Shown: positions 21,198 to 29,208 of the stretch, in pieces
How the letters are laid out: the number at the start of each line of letters is the position of its first letter
Numbering within the stretch: position 1 is the first letter of the stretch
Source: Alphaproteobacteria bacterium
GTDB lineage: Bacteria; Pseudomonadota; Alphaproteobacteria; MPNO01; UBA830
Direction of reading: 5' to 3'
Length of the DNA stretch: 64,000 bases
Assembly (NCBI GenBank): GCA_964291215.2
Contig: OZ219791.1
Coordinates: forward strand, 544,001-608,000
Position numbers and translations under genes: made by a program
The notes under the pieces: generated by a model
Seen by the model: the letters and a program-made list of their open reading frames with translations, nothing else
Database searches by the model: none
What the model was told of the DNA's origin: nothing

Positions 21198-22595
21198 TCA
21201 GCGGGGCCTGACGCGCCTTCCCGGCGGCAGCATCGCGGGAACACGCTGCGCCGCCCCGCCCATGACCTGCTCTCCCAAGGAGTCGAAGCCCATTCCCATC
21301 TTCTTCGCTTTCTTCATCATCCGCGTGAGCGCCTGGTACTGCTTCAGCACCTTGTTGACGTCGTGCAGGCCGACGCCGGCGCCCGCCGCTATGCGGCGCT
21401 TGCGCGACGCCTTGATGATCTCGGGCTTGCGGCGTTCACGCAGCGTCATCGAGCTGATGATCGCCTCCTGGCGGATCAGTGTCTTCTCGTTGATATTGGC
21501 GGCGTCCATATGCTGGCGCGCCTTGCGTGCGCCCGGAAGCAGGCCCATGACGCCGCCGAGCCCTCCCATCTTGCGGAGCTGGCGGAGCTGGGCCGCCATG
21601 TCTTCAAGATCAAACCTGCCGGATTCGATCTTGCGCGCGAGGTTCCTGGCCTCCTCCTCCTTGACCAGCCCCTGCGCCTTCTCGACAAGGCTAACGACAT
21701 CGCCCATGCCGAGAATGCGCGACGCGATGCGGTCGGGATGAAATGCCTCTAGCGCGTCAAGCGTCTCGCCGGTGCCGAGAAGGCGTATCGGCGTACCGGT
21801 GGCCGCCTTCATCGACAGCGCGGCGCCGCCACGGGCATCGCCATCCACGCGCGTGAGAACGATCCCGGTCAATGCCAGCCGTTCGTTGAAGGTCCTGGCG
21901 ATATTCACCGCTTCCTGGCCGGTCATGGCATCGGCCACGAGCAGGACTTCGGCCGGATCCGTCGCCTTCCTGATGTCGGCCGCCTCGTCCATCAACGCAT
22001 CGTCGATCTGGGTGCGGCCGGCGGTGTCGAGGATGACCACGTCGTAGCCTTCCCGGCGCGCCGCATCCACGGCCCGCTCGGCGATCTTCCGGGGCGACTG
22101 TCCGAGCGCGATCGGCAGCGTTGCGACCCCGGCCTGCTCGCCGAGCACGGCAAGCTGCTGCTGGGCTGCCGGACGGTTCACGTCGAGCGACGCGAGAAGC
22201 GTCTTGCGCCCCTGATCCTCCTGTAGCCGCTTGCCGATCTTGGCTGCCGTCGTGGTCTTTCCGGAACCCTGCAGCCCGACCATCATGATCGCGGCAGGCG
22301 GCGCAGCGCGGATTTCGAGATCCTGGCTCTCTGGGCCGAGCATCTCGACGAGACCGTCATTGACGATCTTGACCACCTGCTGACCCGGTGTCACCGAGCG
22401 CATGACTTCTTCGCCGATCGCCCGTTCCGTGATGCGGTCGGTGAAGTCCTTGACCACCGGCAGCGCCACGTCAGCCTCAAGCAGGGCGACGCGGATTTCG
22501 CGCATGGCGCCCCTGACGTCATCTTCGGAAAGGGCGCCGCGTCTGGAGAGCCGATCGAAGATGTCGGCAAATCGGTCTGTCAAGCCGGCAAACAT
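21198..22595 (-). CDS. ffh: Signal recognition particle protein Ffh
   Basis: ALLEADV, GLQGSGKTT, DTAGR, DGDARGGAALS, ISSMT..ER M-domain; ATG at 22595. Confidence 0.98.
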   Translation of the reverse strand: MFAGLTDRFADIFDRLSRRGALSEDDVRGAMREIRVALLEADVALPVVKDFTDRITERAIGEEVMRSVTPGQQVVKIVNDGLVEMLGPESQDLEIRAAPPAAIMMVGLQGSGKTTTAAKIGKRLQEDQGRKTLLASLDVNRPAAQQQLAVLGEQAGVATLPIALGQSPRKIAERAVDAARREGYDVVILDTAGRTQIDDALMDEAADIRKATDPAEVLLVADAMTGQEAVNIARTFNERLALTGIVLTRVDGDARGGAALSMKAATGTPIRLLGTGETLDALEAFHPDRIASRILGMGDVVSLVEKAQGLVKEEEARNLARKIESGRFDLEDMAAQLRQLRKMGGLGGVMGLLPGARKARQHMDAANINEKTLIRQEAIISSMTLRERRKPEIIKASRKRRIAAGAGVGLHDVNKVLKQYQALTRMMKKAKKMGMGFDSLGEQVMGGAAQRVPAMLPPGRRVRPR

Positions 22596-22647: not shown

Positions 22648-22718
22648 TGCGCCAGCGAGCGCACCCGCGCCGACTGACTGACGCCGTATGGCGTTCAGAT
22701 ATCCAGATTATCCTGAGC
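22648..22718 (-). ncRNA. Putative alphaproteobacterial ffh leader RNA motif
   Basis: Lies between promoter and ffh; contains CAGTCGGCGCGGGTGCGCTCGC, resembling the ffh leader motif as I recall it, plus hairpin ACGCC-ATAC-GGCGT. Confidence 0.6.
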
Positions 22719-22724
22719 GCGTGG

Positions 22725-22753
22725 AAGCTAGATGGTTTGCTGCCAACTGTCAA
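22725..22753 (-). promoter_or_regulatory. Sigma70-type promoter of the ffh-rpsP-rimM-trmD-rplS operon
   Basis: TTGACA (22753-22748)-N17-TAGCTT (22730-22725). Confidence 0.75.
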
Positions 22754-24104
22754 CCGCATCGGGCCACGGCGATCCCACGCCAGGTTTGTTGGAAGGGTCG
22801 GTTTTGCTTGTTCAGGATGATTCGCATTTTCGCTGACTTTTTGTGAAGCGGCGTAGTATCCGTTGTCGTGGGGGCAGCGGATTTTTTTGAGACGACTCCG
22901 GAGGGTTTTGAGCTCCGGGATGTGGTTGTGCGCCTTGCGCGGCCTGATGTCGCTGGAACCGTGTTGTTGACCGTATCTTGGTTTCAAGCAGTTTGCGGTC
23001 GAGGTCTGCGTGTTCACCTGGCGCGGGCGGTGGATTGGTGCTGCGGGCTGGCAGACGGGCGCCCTCAGCTGCGCACCCGTTGGCTGGCGCCGCGAGGAAC
23101 AGTTCAGGCGGTTGCCGGGAACAACACGAGGTTTGTTGTTCCTGGTGGTCGTTTCCGAGCCTTGCCTCGTTTGCGTTGTCGCGGATGGTGCGGCGGCGAC
23201 TGGGAGGCTGCGTACGGCCATCCGTTGCTTGTTGCGGAGTCGTTTGTCTCGCCGACGAAGTTCAGCGGCACCATGTACAAGGCGGCGAGCTGGGAGTGCG
23301 TTGGCAGGAGCCATGCGCGCGCCAGCGGGCGCCATAGCGACCGGCACGGGGAGGCGAAGGCTCTTTACGTGTTTCCGCTGCGTCGTGACGCGGGATCGTT
23401 CGCCGCTTCCTGTGGCGTGGGAGTTGCGGGCGCCGCTGGTCGGCGCAGGAGTTGCGCTCGATTTATCAGCGGCGCTTTCCGGCGTGCGCAGGGGCACCGC
23501 ATCGCCTCGGTGCTGTGCGTGATTTTGCTGGCTTGCGAACCGGCACGGTGCGGTTGCGGCGGCGCACTACGACGCAGAAGGAGCTGGAGCAGCATGGAAG
23601 AACAGGGACAAGCCGGTCTCCACCGTGCACCGGGTGCTGCAGAACACCGACCCGGGATGGATCGAGGATGCGGCGCGCAGCCGCAGGTCGGCAACGCGGT
23701 CGACGGCAAGCGCGGCCGCACCGGCGAGAATCATTACGAGACGGTCTCGCTGGCCGGTTTCGATCCTCAACTATCACGACGGGGAGATCGCTGCCGTCCA
23801 CGCCGCGTCGGCCGTCTGCTCACCCTCGACGCGCTCCACACCACCCGCGAGGCTGATCATCGAGACCCATCGCGCGAACTGATGGTCAAGGGCAATGCAC
23901 CTTCGAGAGAGCATCAACTGGAAGACCGCCAGCGCTACAACGAAAAGCCCGCGCATGGCCGCCAGCGCACCATCTTCACCCCGCTGGCGAAGATGATCAA
24001 CTAGCAGATCTTCCGCGTCACCCGGCGCGTCGAATTCAAGAAATCCAGAAAACGGACAACCGAATACGCCATGACCTTATATGACTAGGTTTTGTCCCCT
24101 TGAT

Positions 24105-25545
24105 GTATCTACTCACCCCTAGTTGGGTTCTGATTGGTCGTAGTGCTCGTTGATGATGTCTGCGGCTTTTCCGTCGAGGGCGATCTGGGTGGCGACGAGT
24201 GGGTTGTAGCCGAGTGCGGCCATGGAGGTAAGGTAGCTTGAGCCCCGGCACCATGCTTTTGCGTGGAGCGGAAGCATCCGGACACCTTGAGCTTTGCCAT
24301 CCTGATCTTCTGTTCTCCGGCATTGTTGGTGAAGCTGACGTCGGGGTCGTCTGTGAAGCGCAGGTTTTCGTGTTTCATGAGACGTTCGTGCAGGTTGTGC
24401 GCGTTTGCTATGCGTTTTCCTTTCGGCGGGATGTCGGGCAGTTCCTTGGCGCCCTGATGGTGCGCTTGCGCCCGGCCTCGTTCAGGGTCCTGGATGCGCT
24501 CTTGTTGATCTTGTGGCAGACCTCGCGGAGCAGGCTCTTCATCAGTCGCGCGGTAGCCTCGACGACGAAGGTCAGTTCGCGCAGCAGGTGGCTGCCGCTG
24601 GTGGCTACACTGCCATGTACGAGGCCCAGGACGCCCTTGTAGCACGGGCCGATCTCTTGCTTGCGGTGCGGGAACTTGCACGTCCCGACGACATGGAGCC
24701 ACTTGCTGTTGATCCGAAATCGTCGACATCGGGCGTTGCAGGAGGTGCGCCACGGCGGCCTCCTCCCATGACGCATCGTGAAAGCATAGCCGAGGCCTCG
24801 GAAAGCTTGATGCCGGAGATCGCCTGCACGAGCGCGACGGCGCAGGGACAGCATCCGGGCGACCAGCAGGTTGATGACGAGGGCTTGGATGCCGTACTGC
24901 ACGGGATGTTGTCGGGGAACCGGGCCTTGCACTTCGGGCATTCCTTGATCTCGGCGCGGCGCTCGACGACCTCGAACACGATGTCGTGCGGCGCTCCCGA
25001 TCGACGGGGCCGTCGGCGCCGCAGGCGTCGCAGGCCGCGACCGTCTCCTCGACGATGGTCTTGCGCAGGTTGTCGCCCATCTGCCGGTTCGGCTTCGGGC
25101 CGTTGCTCCCGGCACACTCTTGTCCGTCTGTGACGGCGGCAGACCGGAGTTCCGGCTCGTGCGTGGTCTTCTCCAGAAGGACGACGATGAGGATGACGAA
25201 GACGCGGATCACGGCCTCTTCCGCCACCTTGCCGGCCGCACGCAGCGCCTTGGCCGCTTCGAACTCCTCGCGCGCCGCGTTGACCGTCGCCATCACCCGG
25301 CCTTGCGCTTCATCAGCGCGCCGCCTCCGAGATGCGTTTTCACATACAGATCATGCGGGGGCTGGAGCCCCGGAAGCAGCTGGCACAGCCCGCTCGTCGC
25401 CTTCGATCCAAAGTAGCCCACTGGCGGTCCCCATCGTCCTCGATTACCACCACTAAACGAATCGGCCTGCAGTGTCAAATCTTCACGAAAACCCGTTCGT
25501 TGCTCTACCCCGACATCAAGCCGGAACCAGGGGGTGAGCAGTTAC
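24105..25545 (-). mobile_element. IS66-family element (single-ORF, ISBst12-like), decayed
   Basis: TIR GTATCTACTCACCCC / GTAACTGCTCACCCC (13/15); 8-bp DR CCCTTGAT at 24097-24104 and 25546-25553; TnpC fragments HLLRELTFV, DVSFTNNAGEQKIRMAK, KVSGCFRS. Confidence 0.9.
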
Positions 25546-25553
25546 CCCTTGAT

Positions 25554-25806
25554 GATGAAATCATCCACAGCAGTTGGGGGCGGGAAAATGTGGATCTGTG
25601 GGAGAGCTATGGTTGCAGAGAGATTCCGCTCCCCTGAGCGAACACGCACAGGGGAGCGGGGTGCGGGGATCAAACGATCTCCGCGGAGGTTGCCGTTTCG
25701 ACCTTGACAGGGCCGTGTCCGAGTGTGGTCGGCCAACCTCCCTTGACGTCCCTCGCATGGATGCTTGGGTTTGAACCCGTATCATCGTAAGGCGAGGAGC
25801 AAGGGA
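25554..25806 (+). ncRNA. Putative IS110 bridge RNA with target- and donor-binding loops
   Basis: Target loop closed by GGAGGTTG/CAACCTCC (25685-25741); donor loop closed by CCTCGC/GCGAGG (25751-25797) and containing CATGGATGCTT, identical to the element's circle junction; extra 5' hairpins at 25626-25659 and 25663-25684. Confidence 0.75.
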
Positions 25807-25808
25807 CG

Positions 25809-26514
25809 ATGGTCAAGATAGTAGCAGGGGTCAGCCAGTCTGGACATCTGGCGCATTGTTTTGCGAACGACGCCACGGGCAGGTGGCTTCGCGGCCTCGG
25901 GGTGAGCCGGGTGGTGGGCGACAGGCCGCTATCACCGCAAGGTTCACCAGTGTCTTCATGACCGGGGCTTCAAGGTTATTCTCGTCAACCCGTTGCGGGC
26001 TTCGCCGAGGCGATGGGCCAACCGCGTCGACGCCAAGATCGGCTGGGCGATCTTGAGCCTGTGGCTCCGCCTTCCTCAAGAGCCTGGAGGATCTCCTGGT
26101 GCCGCGCTTGTCGACGCGTGGCAGATGAGGAGGATGGCGAGACCGTCACAAGGGCCTCAGCGGCCGATCTCGATGACCGCATTGCCGGTGCGGCGATCAA
26201 AGCGGTGATCGCCGGTGATCCCGAGCAGAGCTACGCCATCCTGACCTCGATCCGGTGACCGCCGCGGCCCTTCTGGATGCCCGAACTCGGCAGCGTCGGC
26301 AGCCTTGATCGGGGTGGCGCCAACGACCACGGTGCTCGGGACATCCGTGGCGGGCGCCGAAGGCCACGTGATCTCCTGGCCGCAACCGGCACGCTTCAAC
26401 GCGGACCTGGTGCGCCTCAAGACTGCCGGCAAGCAAGGTCGCGATTGTCGCCGTGATGCGCAAGCTCTGGCGAACACCTTGCTGCGACAGCAGCGTTGCC
26501 TGAAGCACCGGTGA
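25809..26514 (+). pseudogene. IS110-family DEDD recombinase, heavily deleted
   Basis: MVKIVAGVS, GRYHRKVHQCLHDRGFKVILVNPLR, FAEAMG, RVDAK, WMPELG, LIGVAP, AGKQ, LANTLLR fragments. Confidence 0.85.
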
Positions 26515-27411
26515 GTGAGCGAAGGAGACACGGCCCTGCCGAGAGGCAGCGCCGCGCGCCGCAAGGCCCCCACCTCCACCACCGAAAGCCCCATCGTTCC
26601 CGTGCGCAACGCTGGTGCGATGCGGTGGCTCGGTGCGGTGCAGGAGCACTATCGGGACTGTCTCGACAGTCTCCCTCTACGACACGACTTGGGGAGAATG
26701 TCTGCAGATCATCGTCGAGGTCGACATCAAGGAGATCGAACCGCCTTGGGACACCTGGAACCCGGACGGTCACGTGCCCGGGGACGGCAAGGTAGCCGCG
26801 TTCACGTGACCAATGGACGGCAACCCGCCGCCGGGACCACAAGCTTCATGTCGCCTCGCTCGCAGAGCAAACCCCACACCGCTTGTGGACAACCACAGAA
26901 AACATCACCACAGACACCCGCAAAAACCTTGCCAAGAAACATGGATGCTCGGTCGAACGCGCCTCGCCGCAACAGCTGCTCGCATGGAATCGCGGACACT
27001 GGGTAGTCGAGAGCCACCATCATGTCCGCGATGCCACCTTCCGCGAAGACGACTCCATGCTCCGAACGCGCCCGCAAACAACGCGATCACCCTCGCAATC
27101 ATCATCCGCAACAAACGCAAGCTGCCCAAACCCTTCAACAGCTTCGTCGACACCACTATGTCGACAAGCGCAAGCAGGTCCTGCACGCAATCACAAGACC
27201 AGGCTGACCGCGCCTCTCTCCCCGACAGAAACCGCAAGCTTTCGAGCCCGGCAACCAAGGCCTCTCGCTCGCCCCGGATACGCCGACCAATCGCGCCCCG
27301 CGCCGCAACAGCGCGTCAGAAAATCTCAAAATCGCAGCCTCGAACGCGTCGACCCGCGCCACGATCAGGACTCCGATCACATCACATCAACAAGCATGGG
27401 ATCACCTTGGC

Positions 27412-27605
27412 CAGGACTTTCCCACGCTGTGGTTGGTGTTTTGAATGACCGCTGAACGGGGCACAAATTTCCGCATTCTTGCCAGGTTTTCCGGCTGCGG
27501 CGACCCGTAGACGGCCCCGCGGCCAGAAAACCCGACAGGCTTGGGCCTGGGCAGCCTCTTTCCATCAGCAGTCGGCAAGATCGAATGCAGCGTGGGATAG
27601 TCCTG
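27412..27605. mobile_element. ISAs1-type MITE A (194 bp)
   Basis: TIR CAGGACTTTCCCACGCTG / CAGGACTATCCCACGCTG (17/18); followed by GCATCGGGCC. Confidence 0.8.
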
Positions 27606-27615
27606 GCATCGGGCC

Positions 27616-27803
27616 CACGACGATCCCATGCTAATTCAGAGACAGGAAATCCGAATGCGTTGGGGCTCATCACAGATCGCCTCCTTGATCGCAATTTTTG
27701 TGCCGAGAAGGCCCCATCGAGCCTTGACGGCGCGATTGCATCGCGACGCAAACTGAGAAAATCTCGCCAGTCGTCGCCGGATTAGCAGCGTGGGATCACC
27801 GTG
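27616..27803. mobile_element. ISAs1-type MITE B (188 bp)
   Basis: TIR CACGACGATCCCATGCTAAT / CACGGTGATCCCACGCTGCTAAT; flanked on both sides by GCATCGGGCC (27606-27615, 27804-27813). Confidence 0.8.
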
Positions 27804-27989
27804 GCATCGGGCCGGCTGCCGCGCAATCAACTGAAGCGGACAATTCGCATGTCACATACACCGGACACTGCAGAACGTTATCGATCGCGGCCATCAAGCG
27901 CCGCGCGGCCCGTCGCGCGACGGAGGAATGCCCGGACATGAAGCCTGGCTGTCCATAGTTGCCGCGGAGCCCTTTCCGGCTGCGCCCTA

Positions 27990-29208
27990 GTAGTCCACCG
28001 GCATTGTATTGATGGTTTTTTGTGGGTAGTATTTCCGTGTCGGCGTTCGTTGGAATCTGGACAGTACCGATATCCACACGGGCAGATGCCGAACAGGCAG
28101 GCAGCCGCAGCCCCATGCGCAGGTCCGGACAACGGGCATGCCCGCAGGTCTTCGGCGCAATGACAGGAGCGGCGCATATGGCCGACTCTCGGGGCAGGAA
28201 GCTCTACCGCGTGACCCTTTCAACGCAGGAGCGCCAGGATCTGAAGGCGATCGTCGACGGCACCGGGGCCGCCTGGCGCCGGGCACAAATCCTGATGCTG
28301 AGGGGCGCTTGTCGATGCCGACATTGCGCTGGGCATCGGCACGGCGACGGTCGAGCGTTTGCGCAAGCGCTGCGTCCTGGAGGGGCTGGACGCCGCCCGC
28401 AAGGAGCAGGTGAACCGCCGGCCAAAACGGGGGCGATGGAGGCGAAGCTGATCGCCCTGTTCGTCCCCGCCCGAGGGCTGTGGACGCTGAAGCTGCTTGC
28501 CGGCCGTCTGGTGGAGATGGAGATCGTCGAGCGCATTTCGGAAGAGACGGTCAGGAAGACGCTAAAAAAAAGAGATCAAGCCGTGGCTGAAGCAGTACTG
28601 GTGCATTCCACCGCACCGGAGCGCACAGTTCGTGGCGGCGATGGAGGATGTGCTTGACATTTATCAGCGGGACTTTGCCGGGGACGAGGTGCTGAGACCA
28701 GCCGGCAGCTGACGAAGGAACCCCCCCGGTCAGCCGGAGGTGGTCGACTATGAATATGAGCGCAACGGCACGGCCAACCTCTTCATGGCCTTTGCGCCCA
28801 ACGAGAACTGGCGCACGGTGAAAGTCACCGACCGCCGCGGGACTGGGCGCACTTCATCCGGGAGCTTGCCGACGACCATTTCCCCGACAGGAAGATCGTG
28901 CTGGACAATCTGAACACGCACAGTCGCTGTATGAAGCCTTCGAGCCCGAGGAGGCGGGTACGAAAGCGGTTCGAGTTTCGCTATACGCCGAAGCACGGAA
29001 GCTGGCTCAACATGGCCGAGATCGGTGCGCTGTCGCGGCAATGCCTTCGGCGACGCATTCCCGACCGCGACACCATGCTGCGGGAGACCGTGGCGTGGGT
29101 CGAGCGCCGCAATGCGGCCGATGTCACTGTCGACTGGCGTTTCACGACGAAGGATGCCCGGACGAAACTGAAGTCACTATATCCTTCAATCCAATAATGT
29201 CAGACTAC
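27990..29208 (+). mobile_element. IS630-family element, decayed transposase at 28178-29197
   Basis: Ends TAGTAGTC.. / ..GACTACTA at CTAG (TA duplication); WTLKLLA, ISEETVRKTLKK with A-run slippery site, DYEYERNGTANLF, LDNLNTH, YTPKHGSWLNMAEI, WRFTTKDARTKLKSLYP. Confidence 0.88.

Follow-up and report, generated by a model that had tools for sequence, protein, structure and literature searches.

In the 64,000-nucleotide stretch of an alphaproteobacterial genome analyzed here (contig OZ219791.1, positions 544,001 to 608,000 of the forward strand; hereafter the window), three ISAs1-type units are stacked at one site upstream of ffh, the gene for SRP54, and this three-unit stack was confirmed as a real feature. 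The stack probably records successive transposition events directed to a single promoter, at a constant distance upstream of it, with the transposase likely positioned by the RNA polymerase holoenzyme on the -35 box. The insertions of this family show a fixed geometry relative to a two-part promoter motif, one-sidedness, reuse of the same site and, to judge from related elements in other DNA, independence from the DUF4338 (DruA) domain. The targeting determinant, to judge from predicted promoters, is the host sigma-70 promoter at a fixed distance.

The unit ends share a consensus, recognized in an earlier note on this DNA, that had 294 exact and 415 one-mismatch matches in the genome. Cataloguing by end class retained 519 of 543 candidate ends, 24 being dropped for a poor terminal repeat, and yielded families A, B, C, D and U, with 190 paired elements and 139 unpaired ends. 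ISAs1 elements are defined by short terminal inverted repeats starting with CA(G)G and by target duplications of 8-10 bp. The elements in this genome have 16-bp ends and exact duplications of 8, 9 or 10 bp, and a full family-U copy encodes a transposase that scored 102.7 bits on NF033564 (cut-off, 70) and also matched PF13808. No ISAs1 match was found among 18 open reading frames (ORFs) scanned from the window region, because the family-U element there, unit 1 of the stack, has decayed. To judge from their sequences, A and B include miniature inverted-repeat transposable elements (MITEs), as their ends match those of longer elements and their dispersed copies carry duplications of their own. 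An exact duplication of 8-10 bp was present at 83 of the 190 paired elements, all 83 duplicated sequences differed, and no shared sequence motif was found inside the target duplications. About 70 of the paired elements had no matching duplication; decay, or an exchange of flanks through recombination between copies, is the suggested cause.

The target signal lies outside the duplications. In the flanks of 464 unique non-junction ends, CAA occurred at -21 in 74 and at -22 in 39, and TA occurred at -43 in 63, at -44 in 40, and at -45 in 27, compared with a background elsewhere of mostly 2-15. Read outward, this motif is TTG, 17 bp, and TAnnnT, a sigma-70 promoter facing away from the element. 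When ends were picked on the -35 part alone, the -10 part emerged unselected, with T in 94 of 145. The fitted model, sTTG[AC]-17-(G)nTAnnnT, had a log-likelihood of 587 (88-170 in five controls) and claimed 33% of the ends. With d as the distance between element and promoter, ends scoring at least 8 bits numbered 67 at d=18 and 31 at d=19, compared with 0-2 at any d above 20, and when training and testing were done on separate contigs, 76 of 289 and 41 of 192 ends fell at d=18/19. Duplications of 8, 9 and 10 bp were paired with d=17, 18 and 19, respectively, in 43 of 45 scored cases. Since duplication length tracks d, the promoter-side edge of the duplication keeps a constant distance of 9 bp to the -35 box, counted from its first T. 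This gap was 9 bp in 35 of 39 cases with spacers of 15-18, and because it stays constant across spacers, the register is anchored on the -35 and not on the -10 box. Of 108 duplication-bearing elements, 57 had a promoter on one side, none on both sides, and 51 on neither. A same-direction gene start, according to rough in-house gene calls, lay 40-300 bp away from 71 of 106 promoter-positive ends, compared with 8 of 49 opposite ends and 81 of 767 random intergenic points. Furthermore, when the promoter matrix was applied to untargeted upstream regions (n=1142), it marked 141 in the sense direction, 36 in the antisense direction, and 26 after shuffling, and the flank motif is therefore the host's general promoter signal. 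A minor excess of ends was present at d=7-13 (22 ends at 8 bits). Eight copies of one promoter-bearing flank with a truncated family-U left end were also found (C1:1247299, 2140120, 2452546; C2:160776, 1144096, 1237968, 1844922, 2056616); the end is truncated by another element, whose sequence in some of these copies also occurs at window position 27987, and this targeted promoter appears to have been copied around within a larger mobile unit.

The same register was observed in other genomes. Close relatives of the elements in which DUF4338 is combined with an ISAs1 transposase were found at 47 loci in 11 other genomes; among their 79 unique ends, a promoter was present at 23 of 39 left ends and 1 of 40 right ends, and the pairing of duplication length with distance (9 with 18, 10 with 19) held in 15 of 18. 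These autonomous relatives are thus oriented to the promoter, unlike the MITEs and family U of the genome studied here, which lie in either orientation relative to it. Two loci in one related genome (L035 and L044) have the same 9-bp duplication and a near-identical promoter, so that either the region was duplicated or one site within a repeated unit was hit in both. For a group without DUF4338, the terminal repeat common to three elements of 1.2-1.4 kb was scanned in metagenomes; at least 120 stretches matched, of which 80 were analyzed, giving 76 ends with enough flank, while 22 ends were tied to a transposase end by blastx. Among these 76 ends, 14 scored at least 6 bits at distances 17-20, compared with 1-5 in six control windows. 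In three of these loci (L142, L148 and L169), the DUF4338-free transposase gene starts right at the left end and the promoter stands at the register. DUF4338 was therefore rejected as a required targeting domain, although it may modulate targeting. Among the stretches listed for this group (L111-L190), a small second TTG peak occurs at distance 13 (6 of 74 ends) and echoes the minor register at ffh described below. A third terminal-repeat group had 7 matches in 401 genomes. The predicted structure of a DUF4338-free ISAs1 transposase (pLDDT 95) is a Tn5-like fold, with a TM score of 0.50-0.54 to Tn5 and 0.25 to ISCth4; no solved structure matching the ISAs1 profile by sequence was found. In two long ORFs, the DruA domain and the transposase form one fused protein; in the Druantia defence system, druA lies in an operon together with other dru genes.

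The mechanism that best fits these observations is probably one in which sigma-70 promoters, read by the RNA polymerase holoenzyme, set the distance at which ISAs1-family elements and their MITEs insert upstream. The holoenzyme is the likely reader because the -10 box, 41-47 bp from the cut, keeps its 17-bp spacing, and because the cut falls at about -45 to -54, the transposase may dock near sigma region 4 or the alpha C-terminal domain. It is unlikely, but worth weighing, that targeting is anchored on the promoter with no protein contact, the transposase instead capturing DNA that promoter-bound polymerase bends or leaves exposed at its upstream edge. Bendable DNA is a preferred target of Tn5-like enzymes, some ends use a minor register that lies 7 bp nearer to the promoter, and such capture would explain equally well the need for both boxes and the freedom of the duplicated sequence. 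However, one-base precision anchored on the -35 box and the preference of the autonomous relatives for their left end (23/39 versus 1/40) fit docking better, and an ISAs1 element that does not target promoters, found in another genome (G129), suggests a specific determinant in the enzyme. We give distinctly less weight to the possibility that the transposase itself reads a TTG-type motif 9 bp from the duplication, the link with promoters being a by-product of survival. The -35 part gives the strongest signal and determines the register, and at ffh a second hexamer, TTGGCA (22741..22746, minus strand; absent in the same-genus genome G001), is separated from the duplication by the usual 9 bp but has no good -10 partner (-1.2 bits). 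However, TTGGCA fits the matrix poorly, and ends picked on the -35 part alone carry a -10 box at 17-bp spacing so far from the cut, a spacing that survival cannot produce.

With such targeting, the next element would land between the promoter and the earlier unit and copy the same duplication, since the promoter lies outside the duplication and survives insertion. The stack would thus grow from the promoter side, at ffh with MITE B as the oldest unit, followed by MITE A and then unit 1, and stacks would stay mixed if same-family neighbours collapse through recombination or hairpin loss. In the genome, 19 tandem junctions were found in 17 stacks, with spacers of 8-11 bp in 16 and of 2, 17 and 21 bp in one each; 38 of the 519 ends are in junctions, and most copies are solitary, junctions being touched by 8 of 27 MITE-size paired copies of A and 13 of 91 of B. 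Two other triple stacks are present, B-C-A at C1:2024867-2026988 and C-A-U near C2:2656412-2658472. Under uniform insertion, 0.016-0.026 same-site pairs would be expected genome-wide, and the stack is therefore not due to chance; a promoter-weighted model predicted 9-34 reuses, depending on the assumptions. This agrees with the claims of the earlier note that independent insertions reused one targeted site and that the stack grows with the target duplication acting as the repeat. The same note suggested looking genome-wide for tandem units with a shared duplication, for targets adjacent to promoters, and for a shared target motif; the first two were found, while the strictly sequence-specific target was contradicted by the 83 differing duplications. 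A promoter of at least 9 bits was present at the outer end of 11 of 17 stacks (8 at the main register and 3 closer), compared with 66 of 161 solitary elements; of the other six stacks, five had one outer end that was not located and one was without a promoter. All 19 junctions join different families, whereas about 30% would be expected to be same-family (P ~0.001), probably as a result of the loss of same-family pairs, and this rule accounts for the unlike interiors of the three units at ffh. At C2:1577881-1578090, MITE B is followed by a partial second B-type end and a duplication, possibly the scar of a collapsed same-family pair. The ffh stack itself is probably a by-product without function.

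That an existing element end attracts the next insertion, which the earlier note also put forward, appears very improbable as the main cause of these stacks. The 19 junctions themselves, the 2-bp spacer of one of them, which resembles IS30/IS21-type end joints, and the stack with both outer ends found and no promoter at the register would be consistent with it. However, promoter reuse alone predicts the number of junctions, 16 of the 19 spacers are full duplications, strong promoters are commoner in stacks than at solitary copies, the end sequence of the elements puts no TTG where it is required, and same-family pairs are absent.

At the ffh site, every coordinate of the layout first described for 22756..27813 holds, including the reduction of the duplication to GC at 27410. 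The ffh gene (21198..22595, minus strand), identified by Pfam SRP54, SRP54_N and SRP_SPB and the ORF list, likely starts with the ATG at 22595, the longest ORF beginning at 22664, and we take it to be the first gene of an ffh-rpsP-rimM-trmD-rplS run, the downstream genes being named from their translations. Its predicted promoter (13.6 bits) faces into ffh and consists of the -35 box TTGACA (22748..22753, minus strand) and, at 17 bp, the -10 box TAGCTT (22725..22730, minus strand), both of which are present in G001. TTGACA is 11 bp from unit 1 and 2 bp from the first copy of the duplication, GCATCGGGC (9 bp, 22756..22764, plus strand), and the promoter core is thus spared, as had been claimed. 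Unit 1 (22765..27409, plus strand; terminal repeats at 22765-22780 and 27394-27409) belongs to family U, which has about 50 copies. Its arms, 22765-24077 and 26951-27409, are collinear with a full 2057-bp copy at C2:356440-358496 (78% and 91% identity), whose 579-residue ORF matches DruA, DDE_Tnp_1_assoc, DDE_Tnp_1 and NF033564, that is, DruA/DUF4338 fused to an ISAs1 transposase. Judged by this alignment, unit 1 is a single decayed DUF4338-ISAs1 element broken up by two other high-copy stretches: an IS66-like remnant (24105..25546, minus strand), with a DDE_Tnp_IS66 match (E=4e-4) below the cut-off and, by copy depth, about 190 related copies, and a second repeated element (25545..26950) with about 65 copies. 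Decayed insertion sequences with numerous small deletions are a very large burden on the genome as a whole; among them are about 190 IS66-like copies, and DruA-domain matches number 41, several of which lie outside the catalogued ISAs1 ends. Unit 1 is followed by the junction GC (27410..27411, plus strand), the sole 2-bp junction among the 19, and by MITE A (194 bp, 27412..27605; about 40 copies), whose end at 27605 resembles the right end of longer DUF4338-ISAs1 elements. MITE B (188 bp, 27616..27803; about 105 copies) is bracketed by two 10-bp copies of GCATCGGGCC, at 27606..27615 and, as the outer copy, 27804..27813 (both plus strand). The six terminal inverted repeats of the stack thus start or end at 22765, 27409, 27412, 27605, 27616 and 27803. 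About 170 bp past the stack, at 27980-29200, lies a decayed IS630-like element (HTH_32, DDE_3; about 67 copies). No Rfam match was found in the window.

The empty allele that had been sought was found in G001, the closest of the 30 relatives searched (the ffh start was matched in 23), which carries a single GCATCGGGCC at the ffh site, 3 bp from TTGACA, and no element. No ffh alleles with one or two units were found in the contigs of four sequencing runs, but these contigs break inside the repeats, so that the negative carries no weight. The junction between promoter and unit 1 was bridged by contigs from three runs, and the GC junction and the junction between MITE A and MITE B are taken from the assembly. 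The ffh promoter, at distance 11 with a gap of 2 bp, is 7 bp nearer to the stack than is typical, and the main register there scores -1.2 bits. Once unit 1 is taken out, however, the GC junction begins exactly 9 bp from TTGACA. One possibility is therefore that unit 1 inserted at the main register, within the end of MITE A, and that 7 bp on its left were lost afterwards; the other is that it inserted at gap 2, with a subsequent loss of 7 bp of the duplication on its right. Either way, a single deletion at a 2-bp microhomology is required. The off-register position is not explained by the removal of 8 bp between promoter and stack, an option rejected because the spacing in G001 is nearly equal (3 versus 2 bp). 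It is scarcely credible that the three units came in together as a composite, or that an assembly artefact produced the stack: one 9-bp duplication does bracket unit 1 and MITE A, and the inner junctions are those of the assembly, but MITE B has its own 10-bp duplication, the nearest relatives of the units elsewhere differ, contigs from three runs span the left junction, and a U-A junction with GC does not recur among the 19.

Several points weigh against repeated, holoenzyme-directed transposition as set out above. The window's own ffh stack is off the main register, with a gap of 2 instead of 9 bp, and of the 41 other elements that have both an exact duplication and a strong promoter, just 2 show a gap of 2. 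The 51 duplication-bearing elements counted above as having a promoter on neither side lack even a 6-bit promoter at the register, and all promoters considered here are predictions. The expected number of reuses depends on the model, with an effective pool of about 1600, compared with 583 and 306 when the contigs were held out one at a time. The distal unit has no matching outer duplication in several stacks, and the promoter-side polarity of growth is weak and suggestive only: the proximal unit looked the younger in 9 junctions and the distal unit in 3, with 1 tie (13 junctions, p=0.07), where the promoter side was called by hand and the age proxy is confounded by copy number. Furthermore, 27 of the 47 related DUF4338-ISAs1 loci come from a single genome, and the ISAs1 element in G129 had 0 of 15 ends at the register.

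On balance, repeated transposition to the ffh promoter remains our preferred explanation of the stack. The broader proposal could as easily fail as hold: that a small Tn5-like transposase arose independently in a large branch of ISAs1, and that its docking on sigma-70 RNA polymerase places insertions exactly 9 bp upstream of the -35 box, so that strong promoters become reusable, leader-like sites at which polar, time-ordered stacks are built with the promoter core intact. A promoter habit would explain how about 260 insertions are tolerated in one genome beside genes such as ffh, and the predicted effects would fall on sites for upstream activators and UP elements rather than consist of gene knock-outs. 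In addition, ISAs1 insertion sites would map promoters in uncultured bacteria. ISAs1 would be a second, structurally unrelated enzyme of about 370 residues with this habit, one-base precision and non-targeting relatives, which makes it testable by swaps and binding assays. If docking does occur, its surface can be mapped, because targeting and non-targeting ISAs1 enzymes both exist, and it could perhaps be used as a promoter-finding or gene-sparing insertion tool.

The growth of these stacks resembles that of CRISPR arrays, which is polarized by a leader, in that an outside anchor survives, the target is duplicated as the repeat, and growth is probably one-sided. However, CRISPR arrays combine one conserved repeat of about 23-50 bp with short spacers and cas genes, whereas the repeat here is 9-10 bp and specific to each locus; the units are transposons, the stacks are 2-3 units long, and they have no apparent function. 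Within the ISAs1 family, to which IS1548 belongs, Flechard et al. (2013) reportedly described conserved motifs near IS1548 target sites, which may anticipate part of the present rule. In Streptococcus, IS1548 was located 9 bp upstream of the putative lmb promoter (PMC2875397), a single-site remark with no rule stated in the portion of that paper available. The accessible parts of four further papers (PMC5005324, PMC8744998, PMC7780238, PMC10433421) add no insertion rule for ISAs1, and no general statement of ISAs1 promoter targeting was found in the literature searched, from which subscription papers are mostly missing. As described in the available text of PMC3942029, integration of yeast Ty3 is likewise positioned by the transcription initiation machinery; Ty3 is a eukaryotic retrotransposon with a described TFIIIB/TFIIIC contact, whereas the contact of ISAs1 is a proposed one. 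The closest parallel is with the Mutator-like TnGBS, ISLre2 (p-MULT 3) and ISKra4 (p-MULT 4) elements, which, according to the available portions of PMC3942029 and PMC4701971, insert 15-17 bp upstream of sigma-A promoters; contact with RNA polymerase was proposed there as unproven (PMC3942029), and ISAs1 goes unmentioned in that portion. As in our elements, the -35 box of housekeeping promoters sets how far upstream insertion occurs, the duplicated sequences are dissimilar, and orientation is tied to the asymmetry of the ends. A circular transposition intermediate is a further trait of the p-MULT 3/4 group. However, those transposases are Mutator-like and duplicate 8 bp, whereas the elements described here belong to ISAs1 by NCBIfam, have a DUF4338-free model that best matches Tn5, insert at 17-19 bp, and duplicate 8-10 bp. 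Furthermore, the ISAs1 elements combine a fixed 9-bp gap with mixed MITE stacks, and no such stacks were met in the accounts of the Mutator-like elements as far as these were available. The present case thus extends promoter-upstream targeting to a transposase family unrelated to those for which it has been published, and the tandem stacks arise from it as a by-product.

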